NCBI GenBank assembly: GCA_964554715.1
Contig: CAZKPU010000002.1
Span: 1-61,953 of the forward strand
Direction of reading: 5' to 3'
Length of the DNA stretch: 61,953 nt
From: an uncultured Thermotogae bacterium
GTDB lineage: Bacteria > Bipolaricaulota > Bipolaricaulia > UBA7950 > UBA9294
In this document: one piece after another, positions 12,125 to 54,162 of the stretch
Position numbering within the stretch: position 1 is the stretch's first letter
Layout: each line of letters opens with the position of its first letter
Position numbers and translations under genes: made by a program
Notes under the pieces: generated by a model
Seen by the model: the letters and a program-made list of their open reading frames with translations, nothing else
Databases searched by the model: none
What the model was told of the DNA's origin: nothing

Positions 12125-12155
12125 ATATACAGCAAATGAAATCAATGATAGCCGT

Positions 12156-12184: not shown

Positions 12185-12216
12185 CCTGTTGGCAAGAGGA
12201 AAAGGAGGCAGAGGTC

Positions 12217-12750
12217 GTGAAGGTCAAAATTGTCGAGCGGCACACATCTTCCAGCGAAGCACTGCGAGCATATGTCATCGAGAAGACCGAAGGGCTCGAA
12301 CGGTATTTCGACGGAATGATCAGCGTGGACGTCGTTCTCTCTGTCGAGAAAGAGCGCCAAATCGCAGATTTTCACGCACACTTGACGAATCGAAAGGTGG
12401 TTGCTGCTCACGAGGTCTCCACGGACATGTATGCCTCGATCGATGGGGCGATCGACAAGCTGCGAAGGCAACTTGTCAAGTACAAGGGCCACCTCCAAGA
12501 GACGCGGGATCGTACCCAGAGTCAACAACGAGAGCCGGCCGACGAAGAGGGGCCCGAGGCTTCGGGGGAGAAAAGCATCATCCGGACGGACACGTACTTC
12601 CGCAAGCCGATGCTCCCTGAAGAAGCGGCGCTGCAACTCGACGCGATCGAGAAGGGGTTCCTTGTTTTCATTAACGCGGAGTCGGATCAGGTGAACATTA
12701 TCTACCATCGAAGGGATGGGAACTACGGATTGATTGAACCGAGACTCTAA
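12217..12750 (+). CDS. hpf: ribosome hibernation promoting factor, long form
   Basis: DMYASIDGAIDKLRRQLVKYK plus C-terminal KPM-PEEA-LQL...YHRRDGNYGLIEP domain. Confidence 0.93.
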   Translation: MKVKIVERHTSSSEALRAYVIEKTEGLERYFDGMISVDVVLSVEKERQIADFHAHLTNRKVVAAHEVSTDMYASIDGAIDKLRRQLVKYKGHLQETRDRTQSQQREPADEEGPEASGEKSIIRTDTYFRKPMLPEEAALQLDAIEKGFLVFINAESDQVNIIYHRRDGNYGLIEPRL

Positions 12751-12753
12751 GTC

Positions 12754-13803
12754 GTGAACGGAACAACGGATCATGGCGTGAGGGTGTTGTCCCTGTTCTC
12801 GGGGAGCCTGGCCAGTCAAGTGGCCACGGAGCTTGTCGCCCGCCTTCCTGAAGTCGAAGAGGTCTGCCTTCTTCACTTTCGCGGTCCGCTGTTCGAGGAA
12901 CTGGACCACTTTCGCGAAACGCTCAAACTGGATTGGGCGAACATGAAGTACCGGACCCAATCGTTGAAGCGTGAAGTGCGGCAGTTGGTCAGCAGTCCCG
13001 CAGGAGAGGCGTTTTCGATTGCGCGCACGTGTTTCAACTGTCGCAGCCTGTTGTTGGCGCGCGGTGTGCGATACATGGAAAGGATCGGGGCGCAGTTCCT
13101 TGTGACCGGTGAACTGGCCGGCGAGCATGACCTATCGGCGGCGGATCTTGCACAAATCACCGAACGTCTTGGCGCCTCCGGGCGAGTCTTTCGTCCGTTC
13201 TCGGCGAAGCTTCTCCCTCCGCTGGACGCTGATGTTCAGCGGATCATCGGCGGAAATACCTCATTTGCCTGGACAAGCGATGATGGCGAATCTCTGGATT
13301 CGCTGGCCCGTGAGATGGGGATCTTCCCGGCGAACAACGCGCCTTGCCGAACCCGCTGCAAGCTGATGCGTCCGGGGTTCGGCGAGCGGCTGACCCACCT
13401 CTTCCGTGAGGAAGGGTTCACTCTCAACGGACTCAAGCTTCTGGACTTCGACCTGTACTATAAGCTGCCTCCGGACGTGAAGATCGTGCTCGCTGTGTCC
13501 GAGGATGAGAAGCGTGCGCTTCAGAACCTTTTCTTCCCCAACGACCTGCGGGTTTACCTCGCGTCATGCAAGGGACCGATGGCGCTTGTTCGAACGCCAT
13601 GGACGCAGAAGCCGGAGGATGAGGTCGCACGGATCATCGAGGTGGCGGCGAGAATCACGGCCACGCACGGGGACATCGGACAGCGCGCATCCGTTGTTGC
13701 GAAATACCGCTTCGAGAACGAGGACGAAACATCGCAGCTCACCGTGCAACCGTTCGAAACGCCCGACGAGATCGCAGCCCATTGCGTGGGCGTTCAGATC
13801 TGA
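12754..13803 (+). CDS. ThiI/MnmA-like PP-loop family protein with degenerate motifs
   Basis: LSLFSGSLAS (cf. SGGLDS), CFNC, AQFLVTGEL, VFRPFSAKLLPP, and a DUF814-like C-terminal RITATHGD segment. Confidence 0.7.
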   Translation: MNGTTDHGVRVLSLFSGSLASQVATELVARLPEVEEVCLLHFRGPLFEELDHFRETLKLDWANMKYRTQSLKREVRQLVSSPAGEAFSIARTCFNCRSLLLARGVRYMERIGAQFLVTGELAGEHDLSAADLAQITERLGASGRVFRPFSAKLLPPLDADVQRIIGGNTSFAWTSDDGESLDSLAREMGIFPANNAPCRTRCKLMRPGFGERLTHLFREEGFTLNGLKLLDFDLYYKLPPDVKIVLAVSEDEKRALQNLFFPNDLRVYLASCKGPMALVRTPWTQKPEDEVARIIEVAARITATHGDIGQRASVVAKYRFENEDETSQLTVQPFETPDEIAAHCVGVQI

Positions 13804-14160: not shown

Positions 14161-14298
14161 CCGGGCAAACATCCCATATCGACAAGATGAAAGATTGTAT
14201 CCCAGGCAAGACGGTGGCAGCGATGAAACAGGATACGGCGCTGGGAATTGCCGTGAGCGGGGAATCCGCTGTTCGGCGCAAGAGTGAGGGAGGATCGA

Positions 14299-17200: not shown

Positions 17201-19266
17201 AGGCGAATCAGTGGATTACCCGAGATCTGGCTCGACTGATCGGAACCCTGGAAGTCGAGCTTCCGGTGGGTTCGGGAAAGAAGGCGGAACGCCTGCTCGG
17301 AACGAAGAGCGTCGTCGATGTGCGTGATCCCGAAAGCAACCGGGTCCTGGTACAAGCTGATGAGGTGCTGACCACCCGTCTGATCAACATGCTCCGCGAG
17401 GCGAAGGTCGGTTCGATCCTCATTCGACCGCAGATTCTCATCCGCTCGCCGATGACATGCGAGACGGTGAACGGTGTCTGTCAGCTGTGCTACGGGTACG
17501 ATCTGAGCCAGCACAAGCCTGTCGAGCTTGGAACCGCTGTCGGTGTCATCGCGGCGCAATCGGTCGGCGAACCGGGAACCCAGTTGACGATGAGAACGTT
17601 CCATACCGGAGGGGTCGCCGGTGAAGACATCACCCAAGGGCTTCCGCGAGCGGAAGAGCTGTTCGAGGCACGAAAAACCATCAAGAGCGGTCAGGCGGGA
17701 ATCGCCCCGATCGACGGGCACGTTGCCGGTGTGACGCCGCTGGCGAGCGGATTGGACGAGGTGGAGATTGTCGGGGAACTGAGGGTCCTTCGACTGCCTT
17801 CGCAGATTGTGCAAGCGGAGGTCGATACGGATATGACGGTCGACGAACTCGTCAATGCGTCCAGCCCGTGCGCCGGAGAAGCGTACCTGCTCGGCTCGGG
17901 TGCAGACCGGGAGCTTCTCATTCTGGATGGAGCCGGTGGCGATCGCACCTATCGGTTGCCGTCGGGCGCGATCCCCAATGTCAAGGACGGCGATCGCGTA
18001 GAGGCGAATGAAGCGATTACGGAGCGGTTCCACGTGGAAGCCGTGGTTGCCGGCCGTGGTGGAACCATAGCCGTTCCGGAAGACAAAGAACGGGTGTTCC
18101 AGCTGGTGACAAGTGAAGGCGATGTCGAGGAATACGAGATCGCCTTCGGCGCACGGATGATGGTCGAGCCGGGTGACAAGGTGGCTCGCGGGGATCAGCT
18201 TACGTCTCGTTCGAAACCGATCTTCATCGCTGCGGAGGCTGATGGAACCGTCGTGGTGCTCGAGGATCGGATCGTCGTGTACAACCCGGATGGGCGTGGG
18301 ATGCGGGTTCCGCTCACATCGGATATCGCGCCTCTCAAGGCGTATGGAGATCCGGTCCGGGAAGGAGAACGGGTGCTCCGCTTGGAGATTCCGAACACGG
18401 ACACTGTGCGGGTCGAATCGATCGAAGATGATGGGACGATGGCCCAGGTAGCGATCCGTCCGAAGAGCGTTGTCGAGATCGATATGATGGCGACGGTCCG
18501 TGCCGGCGACAAGGTGAGCGAGGGGGATCTGTTGACCAAGGGGGTTGTATCACCCCACTCCCTGCTGGACCTCGCCGGTGTCATGAAGACCAGGGACTAT
18601 CTGATTACGGAGATCCACAAGGTGTATAAGGCGCAGGGTGTGGATATCAATGACAAGCATCTTGAGGTGATCATCCGGCAGATTTTGAACAACGTCAGGG
18701 TCACCGATCGGGGGGATTCGTGCTTCTTGATCGGCGACCTGGTCATGCTTGAGGAATTCCGCGCCGAAACCAACCGGCTCCTACAGTGGAATCAAGACGC
18801 GGTCCGGTTGCGTCAGGAATCGATCGGTCTGTCGCTTGCCGAAGACGTTGCCGTAGGCGGACGTTTGCTGGCTGCCGCCGGCGATCCGTTGACGCCAGAG
18901 GTTTTGTCGAAGGCGGAACGAGAGGACGTGAAGCTGATCCGAGTGGCGCGTGACGAAGCGGTGATCGAGGTTCCGTTGGTGGAGAAGATGCTTCCTACCG
19001 GTGAGCGAGAGCTGCTTCGGATCTCGCGGGCGGCGCTTCAGACCAAGGGATGGCTTTCCGCAGCGTCGTTCCAACGGACGACGAAGGTCCTTGCCGAGGC
19101 TTCGCTCCGTGGCGAGGTGGATGATCTTCAAGGGTTGAAGCCGAGTATCATTGTCGGGAAGAGGATTCCTGCCGGTACTGGGTTCAAGCACCCGGTGGCG
19201 ACGGATGCTTTGGGAGAAGACGACGATAGGGTCAGTGACGTTGAACGCGAATCTGATGCGGCTTGA
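14299..19266 (+). CDS. rpoC: DNA-directed RNA polymerase subunit beta' with large lineage-specific insertions
   Basis: NADFDGD catalytic motif, CACGK/CEKC zinc finger, [11 protein letters not shown] trigger loop, IPAGTG end; TTG start 5 nt after GGAGG. Confidence 0.98.
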
Positions 19267-42681: not shown

Positions 42682-43995
42682 ATGAGCAGGGCAATCACAT
42701 GGACATCGCGAAGGGGTTTCGCGTGGGTGGTGGGACTGGGGGTGATCGGCTGTCTTGCTCTGGTTGGGATCGCCGCTGCTGCAGAGTCTCCCGTCTCGAT
42801 TGTCCGCCCCGAAGCTGAGGGGTTCCGCGTATCGGGGACAGCCGCGGAGCGCGTCTGGTGCGTGACGCAAGGAGACTACGTAGAGTGGATGTGGACCGGC
42901 CAAGAGGTCGACGAGAACCGGATCGAGCGGGCTGCCATCAACATCACGGCGTGGACCTCGGATCGGGTTCTGGGGGATGCAGGAGCGGATGTGGATGTCT
43001 TGATCTCGATTCGCTGTTTGGGCGGCAGCGTTGTCGAGTCGGGGGTCCTGCACCTCGTCAATACGTTTGAGCCGCAGGGAGCCGCTGCGCTGGAGGTCGA
43101 GCGATCGGCGTATGTGGCCCGGGGGGCGTACGTTCTCCGGAACCCGGGGGTGATCTCCCGGGGGTTCCGAGTGCGACTTGAGCCAGTGACGCCGACCACC
43201 GGGTCCGAGTCCATGACCGGGACCCGATCGAGTGCAGGCGTGTTCGCGGCGGAGAGTGGGGACGCAGGGTTGGCGTATCGCGTCTCCGAGAGCGTTGGCG
43301 GGTTGGCGGAGATCCTCGCTGATCCACAGGCGTACGAGGGAAGAAGTGTGCGGCTTGATGGAGCCTTCTACGGGGCCGTTACCGAACTCGTGGACGGCGT
43401 TCCCCCTGAGTGCACGTTTGGCGGTTGTGACTTCTGGGTCTTCGGGGTCGATGGTTGGTACGTCTATGTGATCGGATCGCTCCCGGCGGGTCTGGACGCG
43501 GCGGTGCCCGGCGATCTGGGAGCAAGTGTGACGATCGAGGGAACCGTTCGCGTGCAGCTCAGCAGAGCGGCTTGTCCATACGCCTACGTGGATCTGGTCT
43601 CGGCGATCCCCGGTGAAGCGGCGTTCGACCTTCGCATCGTCGGCATAGGCACGGCAGACGGTCAAGAGGTCGTGCTTCCGTCGGGCGCCACGTTGGCGAT
43701 CGACCTGCCCTCGAACCCCACGACGGGATACCGATGGGAGGTTGAGTCGCTGGAGCCTGAAGGGGTCGCTTCCATCGCGGGCAACGGATCGGGCTTTGAC
43801 GTCCCGGATCCCGCGGATCGTGACCGTGTTGGCGTGGGGGGCATCCAGCGGTTCGTCGTCCTCGGCGAAGGCGTAGGAGATGCGGTTCTACAGCTGGTCT
43901 ACCGACACGCATCGGGGGACGCAGCGTCCGACGGATTCCAGCTAACGATCCATGTTGTCGCCCCGTCCGTCCTGATCAGACCGGACGAATCGTAG
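42682..43995 (+). CDS. secreted multidomain protein with C-terminal chagasin/I42 protease-inhibitor-like domain
   Basis: signal peptide; LPSNPTTGYRW and GVGG-QRF...L-LVYR motifs. Confidence 0.75.
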   Translation: MSRAITWTSRRGFAWVVGLGVIGCLALVGIAAAAESPVSIVRPEAEGFRVSGTAAERVWCVTQGDYVEWMWTGQEVDENRIERAAINITAWTSDRVLGDAGADVDVLISIRCLGGSVVESGVLHLVNTFEPQGAAALEVERSAYVARGAYVLRNPGVISRGFRVRLEPVTPTTGSESMTGTRSSAGVFAAESGDAGLAYRVSESVGGLAEILADPQAYEGRSVRLDGAFYGAVTELVDGVPPECTFGGCDFWVFGVDGWYVYVIGSLPAGLDAAVPGDLGASVTIEGTVRVQLSRAACPYAYVDLVSAIPGEAAFDLRIVGIGTADGQEVVLPSGATLAIDLPSNPTTGYRWEVESLEPEGVASIAGNGSGFDVPDPADRDRVGVGGIQRFVVLGEGVGDAVLQLVYRHASGDAASDGFQLTIHVVAPSVLIRPDES

Positions 43996-44045: not shown

Positions 44046-44513
44046 CTAGGGTTCCGGCTCTACCGGTGCGACAAGATCGGCGGTCCACTCGAAGGTATGG
44101 GGAGTCCCGTCGTTCCATTGTGTTCCTGTTCCCGTGATTTGCGAGTTGTCGACTTCGCCGTCCAGAGCGATCTGGACAAGAAGCGACGGCGTGACCAGAT
44201 CCATCGTTCCGCTTGCGTCGAGAGAGAAGTCTCGGCTTCCGACAACACCGTCATTGATTACGATGGCAAACGATTGGCCACCGGGGCCGGGCAGTCGCAC
44301 TTCCCCTTGGAGAGACGAGCCGTCCTGAGTAAGCACCATGGAGAACGGACTCCACAAGCCGTTTGCGTCCCACGTAATCCGTCCGGACCAAGTCCCTCCC
44401 ACCTCCGCCGGAGGAGACAAGACGCTGCATCCGGCAAACAGAACGGAACACAGAACACATCCGCACAACGCGGTCACCCGGTAGGCTCTCCTCTTACCAC
44501 AATTCCACATCAT
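44046..44513 (-). CDS. putative lipoprotein, beta-rich
   Basis: lipobox LFAGC, GGTWSG strand start, SD GAGGGG. Confidence 0.75.
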   Translation of the reverse strand: MMWNCGKRRAYRVTALCGCVLCSVLFAGCSVLSPPAEVGGTWSGRITWDANGLWSPFSMVLTQDGSSLQGEVRLPGPGGQSFAIVINDGVVGSRDFSLDASGTMDLVTPSLLVQIALDGEVDNSQITGTGTQWNDGTPHTFEWTADLVAPVEPEP

Positions 44514-44877
44514 GTCCCCCTCTTCGAGACTGCAAGGATGATTCTGGTGAGCCGAGCCGTCTGCAGCAAGGGAAAGTGACCCCCGTACATTGGGTCCGAT
44601 GTCTCAAACTCACTGCGAACTTGCCCTCGTGGAACGAAACGTCATAGGGTCATCGTGTGTAACTGTGATGTCTGCAGCGGACGGTCGTCGAAAGGGATCA
44701 CCCACTGCGAGGGCCGCCGGCGGATTCCGATCTCCTCACGGTTCCTCTGGTGGTGCTGGCGTGACGGGTCCCGGGAACAGGGAGTTCCGGACGGATCGCT
44801 CCGGCCTTCGACCTAGATCCGGCTGTGTGGTGCATCCTTGAGCGATCGTGTAAGGATGCTTGGCAAAGGAGGTTGAC

Positions 44878-47800
44878 GTGAGATCGGCAAGGTTGCTCTT
44901 TCTGGTTGGACTCGTCTTGGTGGGTGCCTTCGCGGGAGCCACGTGGGCGCAGAGCTCCACCGAGATACCGGTTTTGGCGAATGTTGTGCAACTCGCGCAA
45001 GCTTCGGCTACGGCCGCAGCTGCTGCGGCGGCCGAAGCGGAGGCGATCGAGGAGGAAGCCCGCCTTCTGCTTGCAGAGCTGGATTGGGAAGATGTGTTGA
45101 CGGAGGCGGCGGAGGCTGTCAGCGAAGCGCAGGCTGCCGCGATGTCGGTTGCAGCGGCGGAGGCCGAGGTCGAAGCGACAGCTGCCAGTCATGCCGAAGC
45201 CTGCAGTGAGGCGTTGGCGTCGGCGCAGGCGAGCGCCACGGCGGTCGAATCGGTCTACGCTTGGGCACAAGCTCGAGCGGACGCGTTTGCTGCCGCGTGC
45301 GCCGATGCGCGAGCCCGTGCTGAGGCAAGTGCCTCCGCGTGCGCAGTAGCGATTGCGGAAGCGGAGGCGACAGCGGACGCGTTTGCACTGGCGTGTGCGG
45401 AAGCCGTCGCGCATGCGGGAGCGTCGGCGTCGGCGTGTGCGTCCGCGAGGGCTGAGGCGGAAGCATCCGTTGAAGCGATGGCGCTAGCGATTGCAGCAGC
45501 TGCTGCGGAGGCACAAGCGAGTGTTTCGGCGTGTGTATCTGTTGAGGCGTCGGTGGCGAGCTACGCGGAAGCGATCGCGGAGGCGATGGCGGAAGCGATC
45601 GCCATGGCGGAAGTTCGAGTGACAGCGGCGGCTGCCGCGTATGCCAGCGCCAGCGCCGAGGTGGAAGTCTGCGCGGAGCTTGCCGCAACTGCCGAAGTCC
45701 GCGCCACGGCTGTGGCCCAAGCCGCTGCTCAGGCGGCCGCCTACGCAGCGGCCACGGCATCGGCGTACTCCCAAGCGCAGAGCATCGCTCAAGTCGTTGG
45801 ACAGAATATCGCGCAGGAAGTTCCCTGCGGAGTCGTCGTTGGTGAAGTCCGAGGTGTTGTACAGGCGATCGCGACAGCGGTTGCCGAAGCGGATGCTGCG
45901 GCGCAAGCCGCGGCGCAAGCGGCCGGACTGGCTCAAGCGACGGCCTCAGCGCAGGCGGAGGCGGCTGCGTCTGCCTATGCGAGAGCGGTCGCCGAAGCCG
46001 ATGCATGCGCGGTGGCCTACGCAGAAGCACGGGCAGCCGCTCAAGCGATCGCTCGGGCGAGCGCCTCTGCAGAGGCGGAGGCGTTTGCGGCAGCGGAGGC
46101 GGTAGCGGAGGCCCGAGCGGAAGCGGTCGCGTACGCTCAAGCGATTGCGTTTGCGGCGGCGCGAGCGGAGGCGGCCGCGGAAGCGGCGGCAGAAGCGATC
46201 GCCATCGCCGAGAGCGATGCAAGAGCGCAGGCGACGTCGGCTGCTTCGGCGTGTGCGATGGCATCTGCACATGCAGAAGCGATGGCGCGAGCGATGGCCG
46301 GAGCGAAGGCTACCGCAGAAGCGAGTGCTGCGGCGATCGCCAGCTCGTGCGCGGAAGCATCTGCACACGCAGAGGCAATGGCGTCGGCGGTTGCTCAGGC
46401 GAGAGCCACGGCTCGCGCTGCGGCGACGGCTGCGGCGACGGCCTGCGCGGAAGCGGATGCGTCGGCGAGAGCATGGGCGGCAGCGTATGCCACGGCCAGT
46501 GCTCGTGCCGCTGCAGCTGCGAGTGCGTCGGCAAGTGCATTTGCAAGGGCTCAAGCTGCGGCTTCTACGATGAGTGATGCAGTGTCATCCGCAGTGGCCA
46601 GGGTTTCGATCCAAGCGGCTGCGTGTGCAGCGGCGTCCGCGGAGGCGCAGGCAGCGGCGGCTAGCTGTGCCAGCGCCGCCGGCACAGCGAGTGCGTCGGC
46701 GGAGAGTGAGGCATCGGCCGCTGGAACGGGCTTTGCCTACGAGCAGGCGTATGCGGCGGCCGTAGCGACAAGCTCGGCGGATGCGTTCGCGTATGCTCAG
46801 GCGGCTGCTGCGGCTGCCGCGCGAGCGCAAGCGGCTGCGCATGCGGCTGCGGAGGCTTACGCGGAGGCCCAAGCCGCTGCGACCAGTGGAGTGCAGGCGA
46901 TCTGCGAGGCCACGGCCACGGCACAGGCCGAAGCGCGGGCGTGTGTCTCAGTCTACGCGGATGTGTCGGCCGAGGCCGCAGTCTATGCAGCGGCGGTGGC
47001 ACAAGCGATGAGTGAAGCCCAGGCCGCCGCGGTTGCAGCAGCGAAGGCCGAAGCGGAAGCTCAGGCCGAAGTGGCCGTTGCGGTCGATGCGATGGCTGCG
47101 GCGCAGGCGGAAGCCGAAGCCTATGCTCATGCGGCGGCGCTTGCGCAGGCTGAGGCGGCGGCACAGGTCGGTGTTGGCGTGGAAGCGATCGCCGTTGCGC
47201 ATGCCGATGCGTATGCAGCGGCCCTCGCGGGAGCTCGCGCGGCCGCGTCTGCGGAGGCCGAAGGGGCCGTTGCTGCGCAAGCGGCAGCAGCGGCGTACGC
47301 TGATGCCGTCGCCAATGCGTTTGCGGCGGCTCGTGCAGAGGCATCCGCTCACGTGCGGGCGTTCACTGCGGTGAGGGTGTTGGCGTCGGCTCAAGCGGAG
47401 GCGCTGGCATCGGCTGAGGCGTTGGCCGTGGCGTTCGCTGCGGCATCAGCGTCGGCCCAGGCGGCAGCGCAGGCATCGGTTCGAGCGACGGTGTCAGCCG
47501 AAGCGTGTGCATCCGCTCTCGCGCAGGCCTTCGCGATGGCGAATGCGGCTGCAAGTGCCCAGGCTACCGCGGAAACCTCTGTTGAGGTTGTTCCGGAGAT
47601 CGAACTGTCGATCCGTTCGTTCATCGATCCGGAGTGCTTGCTGCCCGTTTGCGAGCGGGAGATTCCTACGATCTGTCCCGCCTGCGATTCGTGCTGTCCA
47701 GAACCGCAAGAGAGACCTGATGACGTCATCCCGACACCGGGGTGTCCGGAAACGGTCTCTCTCACCTGGGAGATCGGAGAGGTCCCGAGCGGCATGTTCT

Positions 47801-48819
47801 ATCGGAGCAGCCTCTCGATCCCCTATTCGGTTTGGGCACCGATGGCCGGCTACGAACTTGCCGGGGCGATCCCGATCAGCAGCAGCATGCCGCCGGATGG
47901 ACAGATCAGCGTCGATGTCTCGAGCCGCATGGCCTCGCTGTCGGGAACCTTCGAAGCGGGTGCCAGTTACAGCGCTACGTTCGATCTGATCGACTACCGC
48001 CAATGCACGATCGGAAGGCTCACGGTGGTCCTCACCGGTGAGGGCCGGTACGTTCCGGATCTGAGCCGTGTTTGCATGACGGTCACGGCGGTTCACGAGC
48101 AGCCGGGGTTCCTGTTCTTCTCGGGGACAACGACCGAGATTGCGGCCAGGATCACGGTGAACTACGCGCAGGAGCGGCAAACCCCGTTCCAGCTGTGCGA
48201 TGACCCGAGAGAGCGGTACAACCTGACGGCCAGCTCCTATACGTTCAGCACCGAACGGGAAGAGATCCCGTTTGACCGGTGGGAGAAGTACGATCCCAAT
48301 TCGGATGCGTGGGTCACGATCGGAGAGCAGGAAACGGTCAGCGTTTCCATGGAAGCGGAGGCCGCGTATCGGGCGGTGTACACGGGTGAAGGACCGACGA
48401 TTACGGTCACCCCGGTCCCCGATGTTTCGGTGGTGACCCCGTGCCTGGAGATTAGCGCGGTGGTCATGTACGAGCGGATTCGATCAACAACGTTCACGTT
48501 GCAGCAATCGCCGCAGTACGAGACGGAGGCGATCTATCCGCAGATCATGGTGGATCGACAGGCAAGAGTTGCCCCGTTCCAGCTGTGCGACTCGCAGCGA
48601 CGGCAAGTCACGCTGGAGCCGGAAGCGGAGCACTGGACCGAGGAAGAACAGTACCTCGAGTTCTGGAAGTGGCAGCGCTACGATCCGCAGAGTGAGACGT
48701 GGAACGATATCATCATGCTGCAGCTTTTCGGTTCCGCGCCTTCGAACGCCCTGCGAGTCACGCTGGGATCCAGCGGTCAGATCCGGGCCGTCTATCGGCA
48801 AGGCACGATGCTCTACTAG
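44878..48819 (+). CDS. giant secreted (Ala-X)n-repeat protein with Cys-rich linker and tandem C-terminal beta domains; unknown function
   Basis: 1319-codon ORF; GTG after AAGGAGG; signal peptide ending ATWA; GCN codons at alternating positions. Confidence 0.9.
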   Translation: MRSARLLFLVGLVLVGAFAGATWAQSSTEIPVLANVVQLAQASATAAAAAAAEAEAIEEEARLLLAELDWEDVLTEAAEAVSEAQAAAMSVAAAEAEVEATAASHAEACSEALASAQASATAVESVYAWAQARADAFAAACADARARAEASASACAVAIAEAEATADAFALACAEAVAHAGASASACASARAEAEASVEAMALAIAAAAAEAQASVSACVSVEASVASYAEAIAEAMAEAIAMAEVRVTAAAAAYASASAEVEVCAELAATAEVRATAVAQAAAQAAAYAAATASAYSQAQSIAQVVGQNIAQEVPCGVVVGEVRGVVQAIATAVAEADAAAQAAAQAAGLAQATASAQAEAAASAYARAVAEADACAVAYAEARAAAQAIARASASAEAEAFAAAEAVAEARAEAVAYAQAIAFAAARAEAAAEAAAEAIAIAESDARAQATSAASACAMASAHAEAMARAMAGAKATAEASAAAIASSCAEASAHAEAMASAVAQARATARAAATAAATACAEADASARAWAAAYATASARAAAAASASASAFARAQAAASTMSDAVSSAVARVSIQAAACAAASAEAQAAAASCASAAGTASASAESEASAAGTGFAYEQAYAAAVATSSADAFAYAQAAAAAAARAQAAAHAAAEAYAEAQAAATSGVQAICEATATAQAEARACVSVYADVSAEAAVYAAAVAQAMSEAQAAAVAAAKAEAEAQAEVAVAVDAMAAAQAEAEAYAHAAALAQAEAAAQVGVGVEAIAVAHADAYAAALAGARAAASAEAEGAVAAQAAAAAYADAVANAFAAARAEASAHVRAFTAVRVLASAQAEALASAEALAVAFAAASASAQAAAQASVRATVSAEACASALAQAFAMANAAASAQATAETSVEVVPEIELSIRSFIDPECLLPVCEREIPTICPACDSCCPEPQERPDDVIPTPGCPETVSLTWEIGEVPSGMFYRSSLSIPYSVWAPMAGYELAGAIPISSSMPPDGQISVDVSSRMASLSGTFEAGASYSATFDLIDYRQCTIGRLTVVLTGEGRYVPDLSRVCMTVTAVHEQPGFLFFSGTTTEIAARITVNYAQERQTPFQLCDDPRERYNLTASSYTFSTEREEIPFDRWEKYDPNSDAWVTIGEQETVSVSMEAEAAYRAVYTGEGPTITVTPVPDVSVVTPCLEISAVVMYERIRSTTFTLQQSPQYETEAIYPQIMVDRQARVAPFQLCDSQRRQVTLEPEAEHWTEEEQYLEFWKWQRYDPQSETWNDIIMLQLFGSAPSNALRVTLGSSGQIRAVYRQGTMLY
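45157..47580 (+). repeat. degenerate 96-nt (32-aa) tandem repeat / (Ala-X)n low-complexity region
   Basis: GCGGACGCGTTTGC at 45277 and 45373; GCATCTGCACA at 46261 and 46357 (both pairs 96 nt apart). Confidence 0.85.
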
Positions 48820-48900
48820 GTGTTTACGAGGGCCGGGGCGGGTTTTCCCGCCCCTCGGCCGCCATAGCGATCATCGATGGACATGCGGTCCATCAGAGGA

Positions 48901-48941
48901 CGGACGGACCCCATATTGGGATCCGTCCGATTCTTTCTTTC
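48901..48941 (+). terminator. intrinsic terminator downstream of the Ala-rich gene
   Basis: CGGACGGA-C-CCCA/TGGG-A-TCCGTCCG stem followed by ATTCTTTCTTTC. Confidence 0.8.
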
Positions 48942-49008
48942 ACCTAAGTGGAGAGACCTCGTCTTGCCTGTGCTTCCGCCGGGAAACGACGCTGTCTCGG
49001 GCCGTGGA

Positions 49009-49875
49009 TCACGGGATCGGCAGGTAGTCGACAACCGTGGGCAGCCCGTCGAACCGGATGAAGAACCCGACGTAGTCCTGCGGGTCGTCGTCTACATAGC
49101 CCGTCCAGACCTCCACCAGCCTTGCATAGAACAGATCGAGAAGCCCCACGGGGATCTCGGCGAGCGGTAACACCAGGGTCAGCGGGACCCCGGTAACCAG
49201 CTCCACAATCCCTGCATCAAACGTGTCGAAGATCGTCACGGCTTCCGGGAGCCACGAGGTCGTATACGCCAGTCCGGCGAACACCTCGCACGGGCCGACG
49301 TAGGTTGTGTCGCCGGAGTTGACGATCGTGATCTGCACCTCGCCGCCCGGCGCTCCCGTTGCCCCTCCGGCGCCAGCCGGCGCCTCGATCGAGACGATGT
49401 CGGCGCGGACGACCGGCGGAGGGGGGATCTCGTACTGGTAACGCAGAATCGATTCCAAAATGGTTACAAGCCACCCACTGGATGTGCTGTCGATGTCCAG
49501 CCAGATGTCGAGCAGACCGTCTCCGAATAACGTCGTGAGATCAGAAATGGTGAGGACAGTGTCCGCTGTTCCGTGATTCTGGCCGGTCAGCGCTCCCAAT
49601 AGGACTCCCTCTGCGTACACAAGATCACGCTCACCCTGGGCGTAATCCACATCCCAGGCCTTGATTGTCAACGTCGCATCTGGGAGGATCCAACCCGGAC
49701 GGATCCCGGCGCCCAGCGTGTGTGTCCAACCGAAGTCCTGTAAGGCTCCCCGGTACTGCCCGAACCCCGGCTCCGAATCCAGAACCTGTTCCACCGTCAC
49801 TGGAGTCGCAAGAGAGATGACCCCGGTAACGATCACTCCGATCAGCAGGAAGAGAACAACCCTTCCCTTCATCAT
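49009..49875 (-). CDS. secreted two-domain protein downstream of a c-di-GMP riboswitch
   Basis: signal peptide; ATLTIKAWDVD...LLGALTG jelly-roll-like domain; PPPP linker; Ig/CARDB-like second domain; SD GAGGAGG. Confidence 0.8.
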   Translation of the reverse strand: MMKGRVVLFLLIGVIVTGVISLATPVTVEQVLDSEPGFGQYRGALQDFGWTHTLGAGIRPGWILPDATLTIKAWDVDYAQGERDLVYAEGVLLGALTGQNHGTADTVLTISDLTTLFGDGLLDIWLDIDSTSSGWLVTILESILRYQYEIPPPPVVRADIVSIEAPAGAGGATGAPGGEVQITIVNSGDTTYVGPCEVFAGLAYTTSWLPEAVTIFDTFDAGIVELVTGVPLTLVLPLAEIPVGLLDLFYARLVEVWTGYVDDDPQDYVGFFIRFDGLPTVVDYLPIP

Positions 49876-50138
49876 CGCCTCCTCTTTCCCGTTTGAGTTT
49901 CCGATGCTTCTTTGAGGGACGAACTGCATTGCGGACGAATCCAACGTCGCAATCCTCCTCCCGGTGCAACCCGTGAGAGAAATCGGACCTGCGACACCCT
50001 ATCCGGCGAGCTTGTGGAAGAGACGGATCGGATTTCGAGAGCGGTGGATGCATCAAGCGGTTTCGCGGAGCACAAGGACCCGTTGCTGCCCAACTCCTTG
50101 AACGAACGGACCACATCAGCATTGCCGGCCTCCCGGCT

Positions 50139-50213
50139 CCGGCAACTCGGCTACCCGATTCGATGTGGCCCGTGGCTTTGCGTCCCGCTCTCTCGCGCGG
50201 TTTGCCCTTTTCG
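50139..50213 (-). ncRNA. c-di-GMP-I (GEMM) riboswitch
   Basis: minus strand GGCAAACCGCGC-GAGA-GAGCGGGACGCAAAGCCACGGGCC...GGTAGCCGAGTTGCC; P1 GGCAA/TTGCC, GNRA-capped P2, GGGACGCAAAGC core. Confidence 0.88.
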
Positions 50214-50228
50214 GAGCATCCTTTTCGG

Positions 50229-50258
50229 ACCATAGAGCAGATATCTGACGGATGTCAA
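50229..50258 (-). promoter_or_regulatory. promoter driving the riboswitch transcript
   Basis: minus strand TTGACA-N18-TATGGT just upstream of the aptamer. Confidence 0.7.
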
Positions 50259-50428
50259 GACAGGGATCCAACACTGCATCGGCGAGCTGCTTCGAGCTTG
50301 CTTTGCCGGGAGCCATGCAGATTGCTTCGCGGGCATCCGTGAGGGCTTCCGTGGTCACGATCCCTGCATGCAAGAGGCCGGCGTTTGGTGTTGCGGATAT
50401 ACTTTGCGCATAGGGAGGTCTATCGACG

Positions 50429-51277
50429 ATGCCTGAACTGCCGGACCTGGAGGTGTTGCGGGAGAGCTTGATCGAGCGTGTGCTCGATCGACCGATCCGG
50501 TCTGCCAGAGCCTTGCGTCCGGGGATCCTGAAGACGTTCGATCCGCCGCTCGAAACTCTGCTCGGAGAATCCTTCCGTGAGATCACAAGGCGGGGAAAAC
50601 ACTTGATCTTCGCGTTCAAGGAACACAGCTTTCTGGTGATCCACTTGATGCTCGCCGGGAGGTTGGTGGTGACCGGAAGCGACACCAAGGCGACCAAGGC
50701 GACGGGGTTCCTGCTGGGTTTGGAGGGTGGTCAGGACTTGCGGCTGGTGGAAGGTGGACATATCAAACGGGCCCGTGTCTATGTGGTTACAGATCCGCAG
50801 AACGTTCCGGGGATCGCCGGCGCCGGCGTCGAGCCGCTTTCGGACGGATTCACCGTGGAGGCGTTGACTCGAATCGTCTCGGGGACCCGTCGACAAGCCA
50901 AGAACGTCCTCATCGATCCGGCGATCATCGCCGGGATCGGCACGTCCTACGCCGACGAGATTCTCTATGAGGCTCGGATCTCTCCGCTTCGCTACGTGAG
51001 CAAGCTCGAAGCGGCCGAAATCCAGCGCCTCCACGATGCGATCCGACACGTGTTGTCATCGTCGATCGATGCCGTTCGGGAACAGATCGGGGACGGTGCG
51101 CTGGTGAACCCCCCTCGGGGACACATGAAGATCTACAAACGGGAAGGACACCCGTGTCCGCAATGCGGCGCGAAGATCGCCGAGATCCGCTACGCGCAAA
51201 CCCGCACCTACTACTGTCCCGACTGCCAGACAAGCGGAGAGAAGCTCCCGGATAGACGTCGCTGGATCACGAAGTAG
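50429..51277 (+). CDS. Fpg/Nei family DNA glycosylase/AP lyase
   Basis: MPELPD N-terminus, RRGKHL, H2TH AGIGTSYADE, zinc finger CPQC...CPDCQ. Confidence 0.92.
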   Translation: MPELPDLEVLRESLIERVLDRPIRSARALRPGILKTFDPPLETLLGESFREITRRGKHLIFAFKEHSFLVIHLMLAGRLVVTGSDTKATKATGFLLGLEGGQDLRLVEGGHIKRARVYVVTDPQNVPGIAGAGVEPLSDGFTVEALTRIVSGTRRQAKNVLIDPAIIAGIGTSYADEILYEARISPLRYVSKLEAAEIQRLHDAIRHVLSSSIDAVREQIGDGALVNPPRGHMKIYKREGHPCPQCGAKIAEIRYAQTRTYYCPDCQTSGEKLPDRRRWITK

Positions 51278-51304
51278 CGGAGGCGGATCCGTGATCCGCG
51301 AGAG

Positions 51305-52327
51305 TTAACAGATCCGTGGGACAGGATCTCCAAGCGGCATATCCAGGAAGCGCTTTCCACCCACGGCTGTCTCGAGCAGAACGCGGCCGGGCCAGTCGGT
51401 TGTGACTTCCCCGATGATCGCCGCATCGGCCCCCAACGGATGCTGCCGGAGCGATCCGAGGATCTCCTCGGCGCGGTCCCGCGCGACAACCAGAACGGCC
51501 TTCCCTTCGTTGGCCACGGAGAGCGCGGAAATCCCCAACATCTCCGACAGCCCGCGAACATCGTCGCGGATCGGGATCTGTGACTCTCGAACCGTGATTC
51601 CCAGATGGGCCTTGCGTGCCATCTCGTTGAGCGCGGCAGCGAGTCCGCCGCGGGTCGGATCCTTCATCGATCGAACGCCGCCCACAGCCAATGCGCGTTC
51701 GACCAACGGCCAAACCGGCGCGACATCGCTCGACAACGTGGTTTCCATGTCGAACTGCTCGCGGGCAAGGAGAATCGTCATTCCGTGGTCCCCGAGTGTG
51801 CCGGTGATCAAAACGATATCGCCGGCCTCAAACGCTGCATCGGACACCGCCGGATCGGCGACTCCGATCCCGCTGGAGTTGAGGATCAAGCCGTCGAGAT
51901 CTCCATGGGGCATCACCTTGGTATCGCCGCACACCAGCGCCGCCCCGACCTCTTCCAGCGTGTCATGAAACGATCGGAGAACCCGCTCCAATTGGTCGAT
52001 GGGGAATCCCTCTTCGATTACAGGAGCGAGACTGAGTGCAAGGGGACGAGCCCCCATCACTGCCAGATCGTTCAGGGTGCCCGCTGCCGCAAGTCGTCCG
52101 ATGTCCCCGCCGGGGAAGAACAGCGGCTTGACCACATGGCTGTCGGTGGTGAACACGAGTTCTCCGTGTTCCGGACGATCGATCGACGCCCCGTCATCCA
52201 GGGCATGCAACCCGATCCGGCCCAGTCCTTTGTCTGGAAACCGCGACAGGATCAGGTCACGCAGAAGGTTCCCCGCCACCTCTCCTCCGGCGCCGTGAAG
52301 CGCGTTGATTTCCGCGTTGTGGTTCAC
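51305..52327 (-). CDS. hypE: hydrogenase maturation carbamoyl dehydratase HypE
   Basis: LHGAGG, FPGGDIG, GDTKV, DPTRGGL, C-terminal PRIC. Confidence 0.97.
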   Translation of the reverse strand: MNHNAEINALHGAGGEVAGNLLRDLILSRFPDKGLGRIGLHALDDGASIDRPEHGELVFTTDSHVVKPLFFPGGDIGRLAAAGTLNDLAVMGARPLALSLAPVIEEGFPIDQLERVLRSFHDTLEEVGAALVCGDTKVMPHGDLDGLILNSSGIGVADPAVSDAAFEAGDIVLITGTLGDHGMTILLAREQFDMETTLSSDVAPVWPLVERALAVGGVRSMKDPTRGGLAAALNEMARKAHLGITVRESQIPIRDDVRGLSEMLGISALSVANEGKAVLVVARDRAEEILGSLRQHPLGADAAIIGEVTTDWPGRVLLETAVGGKRFLDMPLGDPVPRIC

Positions 52328-53415
52328 CGAAGATCAGGCCTCCCCCCGTACCGGAACCAGATACTGCACGCGCCCTCCGCTCCGACCATACACGGACCGA
52401 CCGGCGTGAGAGGCGTGCAACGCTTGGCGAACAACGGGCAATCCGTGGGGACCGCCTGAGCGGTGAGGATCTCGGAGCAACGACAACCTGGGATCTCCTC
52501 CTGGCCTTCGTCGCCTTGGATCGCATAGCGCGTTCGCGCATCCAGGTCGACATAGCGAGGCCGCAGGACGAACGCAGACGCGGGAATCACGCCGATCCCC
52601 CGCCATCGTCCGTCCGCAACCTCGAACACCTCGTTCAAGAGCGCGAGCGCCGCCGGGCTTCCCTGTTGGGACACCGCACGCGGAAAAGCGTTCTCAACAC
52701 GTGCCGTGCCGTCGGCAACTTGGCGAACCGTGAGGGCAAGGGCGTACAGGATATCGAGCGGCTCGAACCCGCCGACGACAACCGGGATCCCATATTCCAT
52801 AGCCAATCCGTCGTACGCATGGGTTCCCAACACCGTGGTGACGTGACCGGGTGCAAGGTAGGCATCGATCCTCTGATTGGGGAGTTCGAGCAGAGTGGCC
52901 ATCGCCGGAGGGATGAGCTTATGTGACACAAGAAGGCTGAAATTCCGTGGAGGGTTGTCCACTGCGACCGCCGCAGTCGTCGGGGCGGTGGTCTCGAACC
53001 CGACCGCGAAGAAGACGACATCTTGTGCAGGGTTTGCCCGGGCGATCGCCACGGCATCCGCGGCCGACAACACCGTTCGCACATCGCCGCCGGCGCTACG
53101 GGCCTCGTCAAGGGTGCGCCGCGTTCCCGGGACTCTCATCATGTCGCCGAACGTACACACCGTGACTCCCTGTTCGGCGAGCTTCGCCGCCGCATCGATA
53201 TCCGGTGTCGGAGTCACGCACACCGGGCATCCCGGCCCCTCCAAGATCTCGACGGATTCAGGGAGCAAGCCGCGCAATCCGTGTTCTGCGATCGCCGCCT
53301 CGTGGGTCCCGCAGACGTGGACGATCCGCACAGGGCGGTCGGGAGCCAGCAGCTGGATCGCTTCGGACAAGCGTTTTGCGCGTATCGGATCGGAGAACGA
53401 AAACGGGCGGCTCAT
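52324..53415 (-). CDS. hypD: hydrogenase maturation protein HypD
   Basis: HVCGTH, GPGCPVCVTP, GFETT, PGHV, C-terminal Fe-S Cys set. Confidence 0.97.
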   Translation of the reverse strand: MSRPFSFSDPIRAKRLSEAIQLLAPDRPVRIVHVCGTHEAAIAEHGLRGLLPESVEILEGPGCPVCVTPTPDIDAAAKLAEQGVTVCTFGDMMRVPGTRRTLDEARSAGGDVRTVLSAADAVAIARANPAQDVVFFAVGFETTAPTTAAVAVDNPPRNFSLLVSHKLIPPAMATLLELPNQRIDAYLAPGHVTTVLGTHAYDGLAMEYGIPVVVGGFEPLDILYALALTVRQVADGTARVENAFPRAVSQQGSPAALALLNEVFEVADGRWRGIGVIPASAFVLRPRYVDLDARTRYAIQGDEGQEEIPGCRCSEILTAQAVPTDCPLFAKRCTPLTPVGPCMVGAEGACSIWFRYGGRPDLR

Positions 53416-53690
53416 GAGCGGTTGCCCGGGTGTTGCGGGCCGCCGGCATCGATCCGTCCTTGATCGAGCGATGTGGTCAGCTCATCGAACAGCCGAAGCG
53501 TTTCCTCGCCATCCTGCGGATCCAAACGGCGGATGGCGAACCCTGCGTGGACGAGCAGATAGTCCCCGATTGCCACCGGCTCGGACAGGGTTTCGAGGCG
53601 AACTTCCGTCTCGACGCCCCCGTAGTCGACCGTGGCCCGGCTTCCGTCTTCGGCTTGACGTACGACACGCGCTGGTGCAGCAAGACACAT
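53412..53690 (-). CDS. hypC: hydrogenase chaperone HypC
   Basis: MCLAAP N-terminus, GDYLLVHAGFAI; start corrected. Confidence 0.96.
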   Translation of the reverse strand: MCLAAPARVVRQAEDGSRATVDYGGVETEVRLETLSEPVAIGDYLLVHAGFAIRRLDPQDGEETLRLFDELTTSLDQGRIDAGGPQHPGNRS

Positions 53691-53835
53691 TGGAATCACC
53701 GGGGCGGATTCTACCGCTGTTGGCGGGAGACGGCAATCATGCGAAAGCGACGGCGTGCGGTTTCGCCGCTGGGGAGCCGTTCGTACAATGAGTCGGTCGC
53801 CGGATCCCGGATAGATGGCGATGGAGGAGGGTGTG

Positions 53836-54162
53836 ATGGCGTTTTCCAACGAGGACGTGTTTGAAGCCGTTCAACGCATCCCCGAAGGGCACGTTGCGAC
53901 CTACGGTCAGATCGCACGGCTTGTCGGGGGAAGCTGCGGACCGAGGCAGGTCGGTTGGGCGCTGGCTGCCCTTGGGCGTCATGGCAGCGACCGACCGGTT
54001 CCCTGGCATCGAGTCGTGAACGCGAAAGGGATGTCGAGCCTTGGGGTGGGGCAACTGGAGCTTCTTGCGACGGAAGGAATCGCGATCGATGAGCGCGGGC
54101 GGATCGATCTGCAGCGGTTCGGATGGGACGAGTTCGAAGCCGCTGAGGAGACAGGCAGATGA
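53836..54162 (+). CDS. alkyltransferase-like (ATL/YbaZ) protein
   Basis: IPEGHVATYGQIA, RQVGWAL, PWHRV (Trp in place of the catalytic Cys of MGMT). Confidence 0.9.
   Translation: MAFSNEDVFEAVQRIPEGHVATYGQIARLVGGSCGPRQVGWALAALGRHGSDRPVPWHRVVNAKGMSSLGVGQLELLATEGIAIDERGRIDLQRFGWDEFEAAEETGR

Follow-up and report, generated by a model that had tools for sequence, protein, structure and literature searches.

The open reading frame at 44860-48819 on the forward strand of the window, by which we mean the whole 61,953-nucleotide stretch that was analysed, encodes a previously undescribed, exported protein of 1319 aa from an uncultured member of the Bipolaricaulota. The Ala-X region of this protein (aa 31-909) probably forms an antiparallel three-helix coiled-coil rod with Ig-like domains at its tip. 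The chain would fold back between arms H1 and H2 at a VPCG loop (aa 322) and between arms H2 and H3 at a GTG loop (aa 623), resulting in an up-down-up bundle whose arms of ~282-287 residues would comprise about nine 32-residue units and extend for ~42 nm. The features are listed in Table 1, with residue numbers counted from the TTG at 44860, where the listed open reading frame starts.

Table 1. Features of the gene and of the encoded protein, with positions in the window.
Feature	Position	Strand	Evidence
Shine-Dalgarno AAGGAGGT and probable GTG start (44878)	44866..44880	+	sequence inspection
Predicted signal peptide (MRSAR, hydrophobic core, ATWA↓QS)	44878..44949	+	translation inspected by eye; inference
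Predicted helix arm H1, aa 31-312, Ala-X lattice; Cys 115, 147, 161, 179, 193, 225 (codons 45202-45534)	44950..45795	+	AF2, stripe, phase
Loop 1, aa 313-333, VVGQNIAQEVPCGVVVGEVRG, invariant Pro322/Cys323/Gly324	45796..45858	+	motif invariance, AF2 break aa 321-323, Cys mirror centre 322
Predicted helix arm H2, aa 334-620; invariant Cys 465, 497, 529 (codons 46252-46446), 603	45859..46719	+	AF2, stripe, phase
Loop 2, aa 621-625, AGTGF	46720..46734	+	conserved Gly622/Gly624, AF2 break aa 622-624, gap column
Predicted helix arm H3, aa 626-909, Ala-X lattice	46735..47586	+	AF2 (low pLDDT aa 720-877), diffuse stripe
Junction SVEVVPEIELSIRSFIDPECLLPVCE, then Cys/Pro-rich linker CPACDSCCPEP	47587..47745	+	conservation; AF2 coil, low pLDDT
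Three predicted tandem Ig-like beta-sandwich domains, ~aa 966-1060, 1071-1175, 1195-1314	47746..48816	+	AF2, Foldseek

Judging from the sequence, translation likely begins at the GTG at 44878 and not at the TTG at 44860; this GTG sits 5 nt past the GGAGG core of AAGGAGGT, and the residues KEVDV encoded at the Shine-Dalgarno spot are kept in the orthologues, as is expected if the spot is a ribosome-binding site. Gln31 is the predicted first residue of the mature protein, and AxA-type cleavage sites (ASA↓Q, AWA↓Q) are preserved among the orthologues. No SLH domain, lipobox or C-terminal transmembrane segment was found as an anchor of the protein. The setting of the gene is chromosomal, between rpoA/hydantoinase and hypDE, with the synteny shared only with the two closest MAGs, while the neighbours at two other loci (L003 and L008) are unrelated housekeeping genes; the neighbourhood, which is not kept past close relatives, gave no functional hint. 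A phage origin was rejected on the chromosomal setting and on the lack of any PHROG match at cut-off. The searches against Pfam, NCBIfam, PHROGs and PDB sequences returned no match reaching a family's own cut-off. Below cut-off we obtained Kelch_6 (E=0.0023-0.036, 14.5-18.3 bits against the 25.3 needed), DUF4815 (E=0.12), a serine-rich NCBIfam model (18.7 bits against 650) and one PHROG (E=0.006), and the PDB sequence matches, with a best E of 3.2e-8, are Ala-rich chains that match by composition only. Generic (AKAE)n proteins also match weakly.

Alanine occupies every even residue over ~830 residues with zero phase slips. Against shuffles in which the X residues were permuted and Ala was fixed in place, giving an (Ala-X)n null, the autocorrelation of X-residue identity tops at a lag of 32 aa (z=4.73), with lags 64, 14 and 28 at z=3.3, 3.4 and 3.5, respectively, and the spectral power summed over the segments amounts to 105.7 at 9/32 cycles per residue, compared with 14.2 +/- 8.0 in the shuffles (reached by 0/2000). 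This frequency is also the maximum across all frequencies (0/300 shuffles reach it, look-elsewhere corrected). A 32-residue super-period had been claimed in a preliminary description of this DNA, which itself named the shuffled (Ala-X)n comparison as the test, and the period is borne out by it. Spectral peaks lie at exactly 9/32, 7/32, 2/32 and 14/32 in each third of the region, and these four harmonics all derive from two frequencies, 1/2 and 9/32, so that 32 residues equal nine alpha-helical turns and the 14+18 subdivision equals 4+5 turns. As sequence identity the period is strongest at aa 83-225 and aa 400-530, and as a hydrophobic period it spans the whole 830-residue region. The 9/32 peak was also detected in the relatives P0038, P0012, P0014, P0010, P0026 and P0035, and unrelated low-complexity proteins of the (AKAE)n type did not show it.

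When the residues were placed on a wheel of 101.25 degrees per residue, one narrow hydrophobic stripe was observed per ~285-residue segment, with the invariant Cys inside it. The stripe is a sector of ~90 degrees of hydrophobic X residues in each arm, located at 315-45 degrees in H1, 90-157 degrees in H2 and, more diffusely, 45-80 degrees in H3, and the remaining X residues are polar. Within aa 83-240, 340-590 and 600-909 the 9/32 phase stays the same, and it shifts only at the two loops, the values being ~ +15 degrees in H1 and ~ -120 degrees in H2, where it holds over 250 residues. Conservation scores are higher for core X (0.62) than for surface X (0.41), and reach 0.86 for the Ala lattice. 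A coiled coil is recognised by a periodicity of 3.5-3.67 over many turns in an alpha-helical structure; the periodicity found here is 9/32 = 3.556 with constant phase over up to 250 residues, and the helix is predicted by AF2 together with one amphipathic stripe per arm. Two periods are superimposed, a dipeptide lattice with Ala on even residues and a hydrophobic stripe with a spacing of 32/9 = 3.556 residues, which equals three heptads plus one hendecad. Since the lattice has a repeat of two residues, the coiled-coil repeat must be even, hence 32 = 14 + 18, and the core slots would be taken in turn by a pair of X residues (C, I, V, F, M or L) and a pair of Ala from the lattice, which gives a 16-residue beat. 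Searches of the literature for coiled coils with alternating Ala, for a period of 32 residues and for Ala-rich proteins of Bipolaricaulota returned nothing specific.

The AF2 model is helical over aa 37-921, with short breaks that include those in the two loops; the extra breaks that it shows at aa 185-189 and 480-482 do not coincide with conserved residues. The pLDDT is 60-80 until ~aa 710 and below 50 for aa 720-877 of H3, where the prediction is very unsure although the alignment is deepest there, and the global confidence is low (pTM 0.33, mean pLDDT 62.7). The input alignment (A4) was shallower than the alignment of ten orthologues (A3) and partly misaligned, which probably lowered the AF2 confidence. 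In a Foldseek search with this model, chemoreceptor hairpins (3zx6, 2ch7, 8c5v) came out best, at a non-significant E of about 0.5-1.

The Cys previously placed at residues 115, 147, 161, 179, 193, 225, 465, 497 and 529 match exactly, and further Cys absent from that account lie in the region at 271, 323, 383, 589, 603, 682, 695 and 883. Every Cys lies on the odd (non-Ala) lattice save Cys 682, in agreement with the earlier statement that nearly all lie on the non-Ala face. Cys 115, 147, 161, 179, 225, 323, 465, 497, 529 and 603 are invariant in all ten orthologues and Cys 193 is kept in nine. The ladder of Cys with its 32-residue (14+18) spacing is genuine and significant, and it has stayed invariant in evolution. 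In an alpha-helix a step of 14 residues makes 4 turns and one of 18 makes 5, so the ladder would be a stripe in the coiled-coil core. In addition, the Cys are mirrored around Pro322 in the conserved VPCG loop, with 115, 147 and 179 matching 529, 497 and 465, respectively (each pair adds up to 644, with the centre at 322). Under a rigid-shift comparison, three mirrored pairs were counted in the window protein (p=0.03), two in P0026 (p=0.09) and one each in P0023 and P0024 (p=0.18 each), the product of these p-values being about 5e-4; relatives with Cys at other positions thus follow the same mirror rule, and P0038, which is one unit shorter, retains both loop-proximal pairs with the distal pair missing. 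The mirror correlation of hydrophobicity among H1, H2 and H3 is dominated by the lattice, with peaks at sums of 640, 654, 672 and so on, and 644 is not singled out.

In the proposed bundle, Cys 115/147/179 of H1 would face Cys 529/497/465 of H2, probably as a ladder of intrachain disulfide staples, and Cys 161/193/225 may self-pair between chains. The mirror symmetry makes the cross-linking role suggested in the preliminary description plausible; the disulfides themselves are unproven, because Bipolaricaulota are anaerobes (PMC6092417) and no Dsb, VKOR or other thiol oxidase gene was found in the window. Both observations would suit a helical rod in which the Cys are not disulfides at all but small hydrophobic core residues or metal-binding layers, as would the finding that the Cys core slots are also filled by A, I, V and M. 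We consider such a rod rather unlikely, given that the Cys are invariant while other core positions vary freely, that mirror pairing persists across lineages, that the exported protein carries an additional Cys-rich linker, and that a TlpA/ResA-like thioredoxin with a CPYC motif is encoded 3 nt downstream at the P0014 locus.

The ten orthologues, all from Bipolaricaulota MAGs, fall to ~60% identity in the Ala-X region and 38% in the C-terminal domains, and across aa 40-912 they show only one gap column in 870, which is located in loop 2 (GTG). Exactly three gaps of 32 aa, one per arm, separate the window protein from P0038 (window protein aa 104-135, 448-479 and 698-729), and again exactly three, one per arm, separate P0012 from P0014 (P0012 aa 100-131, 390-421 and 549-580). 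The P0012/P0014 gaps share an axial level, 125-161 residues from loop 1, while in the comparison with P0038 the gap in H2 is about two units closer to loop 1 than those in H1 and H3. The Pro-Cys of loop 1 is kept in the distant relatives P0012, P0014, P0023, P0024, P0026 and P0038, and of the loop 2 glycines one is invariant (A3 column G593) and the other is present in at least 90% (G595). In H3 the motif V-x-V-x-V-[DE]-A-[MI]-A occurs three times, with starts at aa 738, 770 and 802, a spacing of 32 residues, and with invariant columns inside it. The DPxCxxxxC of the junction is kept in all relatives, distant ones included, and its CxxxxC is co-conserved with the loop-1 Cys; in P0012 the loop-1 and junction Cys are the sole Cys of the domain. 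This co-conservation fits a placement of both at the same end of the bundle.

A stripe of this kind suits any coiled coil, including a single unfolded helix of ~860 residues (~125 nm) that associates as a parallel in-register homodimer or homotrimer, with each Cys self-pairing across chains. Single losses are seen of Cys 193, in L004, and of Cys 161, in P0038, each leaving the other conserved Cys intact, which is what self-pairing predicts for that subset. An unfolded helix is nevertheless improbable in view of the conserved Pro/Gly loops at aa 322 and 623 with stripe phase jumps at both, the near-equal lengths of the arms (282, 287 and 284 residues), the indel triplets with one gap per arm in two independent comparisons, the Cys mirror symmetry about loop 1 in three lineages, and the co-conserved loop-1 and junction Cys. 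The concerted 32-aa indels and the mirrored Cys, both read from sequence, suggest that the three helices of one chain pack together, presumably in the knobs-into-holes manner (two or more helices) that is a third mark of a coiled coil.

The preliminary description had further opposed an Ala face to a non-Ala face, a picture of a beta-sheet or fibre that is not supported in view of a hydrophobic period of 3.556, a single stripe per segment and a helix predicted by AF2. The corresponding structure would be a beta-solenoid or cross-beta silk with an all-Ala and a variable face, in which the Cys of successive 32-residue coils or hairpins (14+18) are stacked in register as a disulfide ladder. We regard this as highly improbable, even though beta strands naturally have a period of 2, as kept strictly here over ~830 residues, and V-x-V-G-V motifs recur every 32 residues at aa 738-810, where AF2 is unsure. 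A strand-turn pattern per coil was not seen, since the variable face has a period of 3.556 and not 2; on the X lattice this period (alias 4.57) has no beta meaning, and the 101.25-degree sort brings the hydrophobic X and all the invariant Cys into one narrow stripe. No turn-forming residues (Gly, Asn, Pro) recur at the 32-aa period, the composition (A, E, Q, R, S) favours helix, AF2 gives helix only, and three concerted 32-aa indels are unexpected for a solenoid, which can lose one coil alone.

At the DNA level, GCGGACGCGTTTGC is present at 45277 and 45373 and the ASAHAEAMA-coding block at 46261 and 46357, both pairs being 96 nt apart as reported earlier. No 96-nt tandem repeat was found by TRF, the best copy pair being 70% identical, and the 32-aa period is therefore structural and not a product of recent duplication. 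An older large duplication, which had been suggested from ACVSV blocks near aa 224 and 694, is at chance level; these blocks share 5 non-Ala identities per 36 residues, a value equalled by 894 of 71,631 in-phase pairs, and the motif is confined to the window protein's own clade. Internal duplication among H1, H2 and H3 was likewise not significant (z = 0.9, 2.6, 1.5; H1-H3 = 2.6 vs shuffles). The reading of the region as fast-evolving, structureless low-complexity filler whose period is a remnant of recent tandem DNA duplication has next to no likelihood left: the DNA is simple and GCN-rich with short tandem arrays of 6-42 nt, and there are the weak matches to generic (AKAE)n proteins, but it is refuted by the conserved length, the shuffle spectra, the missing 96-nt repeat, the use of all four Ala codons (179 GCG, 66 GCC, 50 GCA and 46 GCT) and conservation that depends on position.

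The C-terminal domains are predicted by AF2 to be all-beta with a mean pLDDT of 76.9, and Foldseek against the PDB matched them, at a best E of 7e-6, to a pilin T-antigen, to adhesins and to Ig-like domains of cytokine receptors. Once the signal peptide has been removed, the rod may serve as a rigid stalk or fixed-length spacer that holds the three Ig-like domains at its loop-1 end, in an envelope described for Bipolaricaulota as Thermotoga-like (PMC6092417). A spacer role would be in line with coiled coils that are conserved in length and divergent in sequence, such as Omp-alpha with 45-50 nm (PMC5082667, PMC10160955); an adhesin role is also conceivable, and according to Hao et al. (2018) cell-surface adhesins are lacking from their Acetothermia genome (PMC6092417). 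Omp-alpha of Thermotoga and the SlpA/OmpM tethers of deep-branching diderms, which span the envelope of a related atypical-diderm lineage, resemble the proposed rod of the window protein in being exported, rod-like coiled coils of conserved length, ~45-50 nm compared with the ~42 nm proposed here (PMC10160955, PMC5082667). However, they carry an N-terminal SLH domain, which Pfam and NCBIfam scans of the whole window protein did not detect; they are parallel homo-oligomers, whereas the window protein apparently folds back on itself, with three helices in one chain; and their C-terminus is a membrane anchor or a beta-barrel, where the window protein has three predicted Ig-like beta sandwiches. 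No sequence relationship to Omp-alpha or SlpA/OmpM was detected.

It is possible, although somewhat doubtful, that such proteins are modular rulers, i.e., single-chain three-helix Ala-X coiled coils built from 32-residue quanta and locked by disulfides, which would set varied envelope spacings. A quantum of 32 residues, or 9 turns and ~4.8 nm, would be gained or lost in all three arms together, and members with ~3 (the short relative P0023), 4, 6, 7, 8 and 9 units (~14-43 nm) in Bipolaricaulota and other uncultured bacteria would play the part of Omp-alpha although they lack SLH domains. To our knowledge, the Bipolaricaulota are a phylum without cultured members whose envelope architecture is unresolved, and the findings point to a large conserved surface or envelope protein in it. 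If the three-helix model is true, the region would be a natural coiled coil on two exact commensurate periods (2 and 32/9) over more than 800 residues, the triple co-axial 32-residue indels would be a clean natural case of helix register constraining indels, and the rigid, disulfide-stapled Ala-rich rod would be a ready scaffold adjustable in length in 4.8-nm steps.

Other known systems share single traits with the window protein. The cytoplasmic signalling hairpin of methyl-accepting chemotaxis proteins (MCP) is likewise a long, Ala-rich, antiparallel helical hairpin, and Alexander and Zhulin reportedly described in 2007 that its length changes by matched whole-repeat indels in both arms. The MCP hairpin, however, is cytoplasmic with a heptad unit and two arms, whereas the window protein has a 32-residue unit, three arms and a signal peptide, and it gave no Pfam match to MCPsignal (PF00015). 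The honeybee and hornet silks and the 'Alacoil' are similar in being Ala-rich, multi-helix antiparallel coiled coils in which small core residues pack tightly (PMC12284834). Silk consists of four separate chains of ~210 residues with heptads and with Ala enriched at core positions only, unlike the window protein, in which a single chain has Ala at every second residue around the whole helix and a period of 32/9. The Ala-rich (A-K/E)n linkers of SPOR- and OmpA-type envelope proteins also extend an Ala-X pattern over hundreds of residues, and proteins with such linkers were among the weak matches (P0036, P0037, P0041, P0042, P0046 and P0048). Their X residues are almost all charged, and they have no hydrophobic stripe, 9/32 peak, conserved loops or Cys; they are compositionally alike and not homologous to the window protein.

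Within the Ala-X region of the window protein, encoded by the open reading frame (ORF) at 44860-48819 (+ strand, 1319 codons counted from TTG, from which residues are numbered here), Ala occupies 355 even versus 71 odd positions in the first 910 residues and keeps its phase without any slip over aa 83-909. A 32-residue period with laddered Cys had been described for this region, and every coordinate in that preliminary description proved correct on recheck. The shuffled control proposed there, in which the X residues between the lattice Ala were permuted with the Ala lattice fixed, showed that X self-matching is best at a lag of 32 aa (z = 4.7), with lags of 64, 14 and 28 being next best. The spectral power at 9/32 cycles/residue, summed over three segments, was 105.7 versus 14.2 ± 8.0 after shuffling, a value reached in 0 of 2000 shuffles, and 9/32 was the global spectral maximum, reached in 0 of 300. 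The period and the Cys ladder are confirmed, and are stronger than could be seen at first reading. Hydrophobicity across a 10-sequence alignment peaks at exactly 9/32, 7/32, 2/32 and 14/32 cycles/residue in each third of the region; these four peaks are the product of two fundamentals, 1/2 (the Ala lattice) and 9/32, with 7/32 being an alias of 9/32, and 2/32 and 14/32 their beat. The 0.282 peak was also found in P0038, P0012, P0014, P0010, P0026 and P0035, which are related proteins from metagenomic searches, and was absent from unrelated (AKAE)n proteins. A 96-nt tandem repeat was absent from the Ala-X region at the DNA level, where the two most similar copies share 70% identity and Ala is encoded by all four of its codons.

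By established coiled-coil theory, a period of 32/9 = 3.556 residues belongs to a coiled coil and corresponds to three heptads and one hendecad; 14 and 18 residues make 4 and 5 turns of an α-helix, so that the Cys spacing of "32, or 14+18" describes a single stripe along a helix. When the 32 positions were ordered at 101.25 degrees/residue for aa 83-298, 340-618 and 628-905, each segment showed a single unbroken sector of about 90 degrees where X is C, I, V, F, M, L or A, with E, Q, S, R, T or D outside it and the invariant Cys inside it. The 9/32 phase is constant within aa 83-240 (+15 degrees), aa 340-590 (-120 degrees) and aa 600-909 (about -70 degrees), shifting only around aa 243-340 and about aa 600, and the mean pairwise identity is 0.62 for core X, 0.41 for surface X and 0.86 for the Ala lattice. 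AlphaFold2 (aa 30-960) predicted helix over aa 37-921 with short breaks at aa 72-75, 185-189, 321-323, 480-482, 622-624, 736-743, 771-773 and 818-821, with pLDDT of 60-80 to about aa 710, <50 across aa 720-877, and pTM of 0.33; the best matches of a PDB fold search were chemoreceptor helical hairpins, which were not significant. Given the 3.556 period, the single stripe and the predicted helix, the β-ladder setting in which the Cys had first been placed is replaced by an α-helical 32/9 coiled-coil rod. Ala takes every second position on the solvent side too, which might reflect lateral rod packing or maximal helix propensity.

Two conserved motifs outside the lattice, aa 313-333 (with invariant Pro322-Cys323-Gly324, loop 1) and aa 621-625 (G-T-G), divide the mature Ala-X region into arms H1, H2 and H3 of 282, 287 and 284 residues. 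Aligned globally, the window protein and P0038 (about 50% identity) differ by exactly three gaps of exactly 32 residues, one per arm, and the same was observed between P0012 and P0014, a more distant, Lys-rich pair. The P0012-P0014 gaps share one axial level, 125-161 residues from the top (reference: loop 1 Cys261 and the TEGK turn at 482), while in the window protein and P0038 the H1 and H3 gaps are level, with the H2 gap about two units above them. That three gaps are needed fits three co-extensive helices; one unit alone could be lost from a solenoid or from one long helix. The Cys positions also sum to a constant (115+529 = 147+497 = 179+465 = 644), so that they mirror each other across residue 322, the Pro of loop 1. 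Relatives whose Cys lie at other positions follow this rule too: P0026 has two pairs centred on 75.5 (its loop Cys is Cys76), P0023 and P0024 each have one, centred on 338.5 and 339.5 (loop Cys at 339 and 340), and in P0014 the centre is 196.5 (loop Cys197). Under a rigid-shift null, the p values for the three independent lineages were 0.03 (window protein), 0.09 (P0026) and 0.18 (P0023 and P0024), with a product of about 5e-4. P0038, which is shorter by one unit, retains both pairs near the loop but not the distal pair. The loop-1 Cys and two junction Cys are co-conserved family-wide, being the sole Cys of the domain in P0012, and an up-down-up bundle puts both elements at the same end. In H3 (window 47071-47289, aa 738-810), Val occupies the Ala lattice within three invariant V-x-V-x-V-[DE]-A-[MI]-A motifs starting exactly 32 residues apart (VAVAVDAMA, VGVGVEAIA, GAVAAQAAA or VAVAVNAAA; also written V-x-V-G-V-E-A-I-A), and AlphaFold2 confidence collapses there (pLDDT <50) despite the alignment being deepest.

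In the proposed fold, one chain of the exported protein would make an antiparallel coiled coil of three helices, about 42 nm long (about 285 residues, each adding about 1.5 Å), in whose core two X residues would alternate with two lattice Ala. The proposed cross-linking of a fibre survives in a new form, in which the H1-H2 Cys pairs would probably act as disulfide staples; for Cys 161, 193 and 225, the occasional single loss (locus L004; P0038) would fit self-pairing between chains. Function, oligomeric state, anchoring and Cys redox state are what we infer. An old large duplication, suggested from recurring ACVSV blocks, was not supported. Coiled coils that serve as spacers are recognised by a strictly kept length and a diverging sequence, the classic example being the Thermotoga Omp-alpha rod of 45-50 nm (PMC5082667, PMC10160955), and the envelope of Bipolaricaulota is reported to be unusual and Thermotoga-like, with no recognised adhesins (PMC6092417).

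No family match to the window protein was found in Pfam, NCBIfam, PHROG or PDB; the family is uncharacterised and is an unusual variant of a known structure type. A scan of one genome per species gave nine loci, all in metagenome-assembled genomes (MAGs) labelled Candidatus Bipolaricaulota or "uncultured Thermotogae", from which full-length orthologues (about 1300 aa each) were read and aligned. The orthologues diverge from the window protein to as little as about 60% identity across the Ala-X region and 38% across the C-terminal domains, yet the alignment of aa 40-912 has just one gap column, which affects one residue of one sequence and falls at the GTG motif (about aa 623). Cys 115, 147, 161, 179, 225, 323, 465, 497, 529 and 603 are invariant, and Cys 193 is retained in 9 of 10 sequences. 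An exhaustive HMMER search of 1.84 billion cluster representatives returned only 99 proteins at E<=1e-3 (18 at E<=1e-10), among which P0038, P0012, P0014, P0023, P0024, P0026 and P0035 are true relatives sharing the Ala-X region, a central "(V/I)PC" loop and a "DPxCxxxxC" junction; the other matches are generic (AKAE)n low-complexity proteins. P0034 (319 aa, ENA) matches the family signal peptide and first ~180 residues, Cys ladder spacing included, and then continues in unrelated Pro/Thr/Asn-rich sequence, most likely through a frameshift or assembly error in its contig.

After the junction lies a Cys/Pro-rich linker (CPACDSCCPEP), and the last ~350 residues are predicted by AlphaFold2 as three β-sandwich domains (mean pLDDT 76.9) with matches to Ig-like domains from pilins, adhesins and receptors (best E = 7e-6). 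This C-terminal part, used as query, found eight metagenomic proteins only, several with Ala-X sequence upstream.

The true start is probably GTG at 44878, since it lies 5 nt past the GGAGG core of a Shine-Dalgarno site (see table). The "KEVDV" at the ORF start (window 44860-44880), conserved in all orthologues, is probably this ribosome-binding site, AAGGAGGT, plus the spacer before GTG, and not protein. From GTG, the N-terminus as read from the sequence is a putative signal peptide, MRSARLLFLVGLVLVGAFAGATWA, with an AxA cleavage site before QS.

Features of the Ala-X gene, its neighbours and the arm gaps
Feature	Position	Strand	Remark
Shine-Dalgarno site AAGGAGGT	44866-44873	+	perfect; read from sequence
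Exported 437-aa protein, directly upstream of Ala-X gene	42682-43995	+	C-terminal chagasin-family peptidase inhibitor domain (I42, E=6.6e-13)
155-aa protein, lipoprotein-like N-terminus	44046-44513	-	no family match
311-aa protein, hydrophobic N-terminal segment	49009-49944	-	no family match
Gaps, window protein-P0038	window protein aa 104-135, 448-479, 698-729
Gaps, P0012-P0014	P0012 aa 100-131, 390-421, 549-580

The window is a bacterial chromosome segment carrying infB, rpoC, fusA, secY, rpoA, hydantoinase A and B, fpg, hypE and hypD. The chagasin-domain gene is syntenic in the two closest MAGs (loci L001 and L002), and the 155-aa and 311-aa genes are kept beside the Ala-X gene in these two only. 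Many long ORFs (<=383 aa; Pro/Arg/Leu-rich) overlap the Ala-X region on the minus strand and in other frames (44698-47795); these arise from the GCN-NNN codon lattice and are not genes. The rpoC product (14284-19266, +) is unusually long (1660 aa), and its Rpb1 domain 5 match is spread across residues 879-1479, implying a large lineage-specific insertion. Up to about 48 kb the GC skew stays positive (0.04-0.18), and over the next 6 kb (48000-54000) it is about zero, a change coinciding with a switch from mostly plus- to minus-strand genes. At locus L010, a membrane-anchored TlpA/ResA-like thioredoxin (CPYC; 9639-10232) starts 3 nt past the Ala-X gene encoding P0014, a distant relative; next comes an HExxH metalloprotease-like protein of 1173 aa (10248-13769), whose C-terminal repeats resemble the C-terminal domains of family members P0013, P0018 and P0008.
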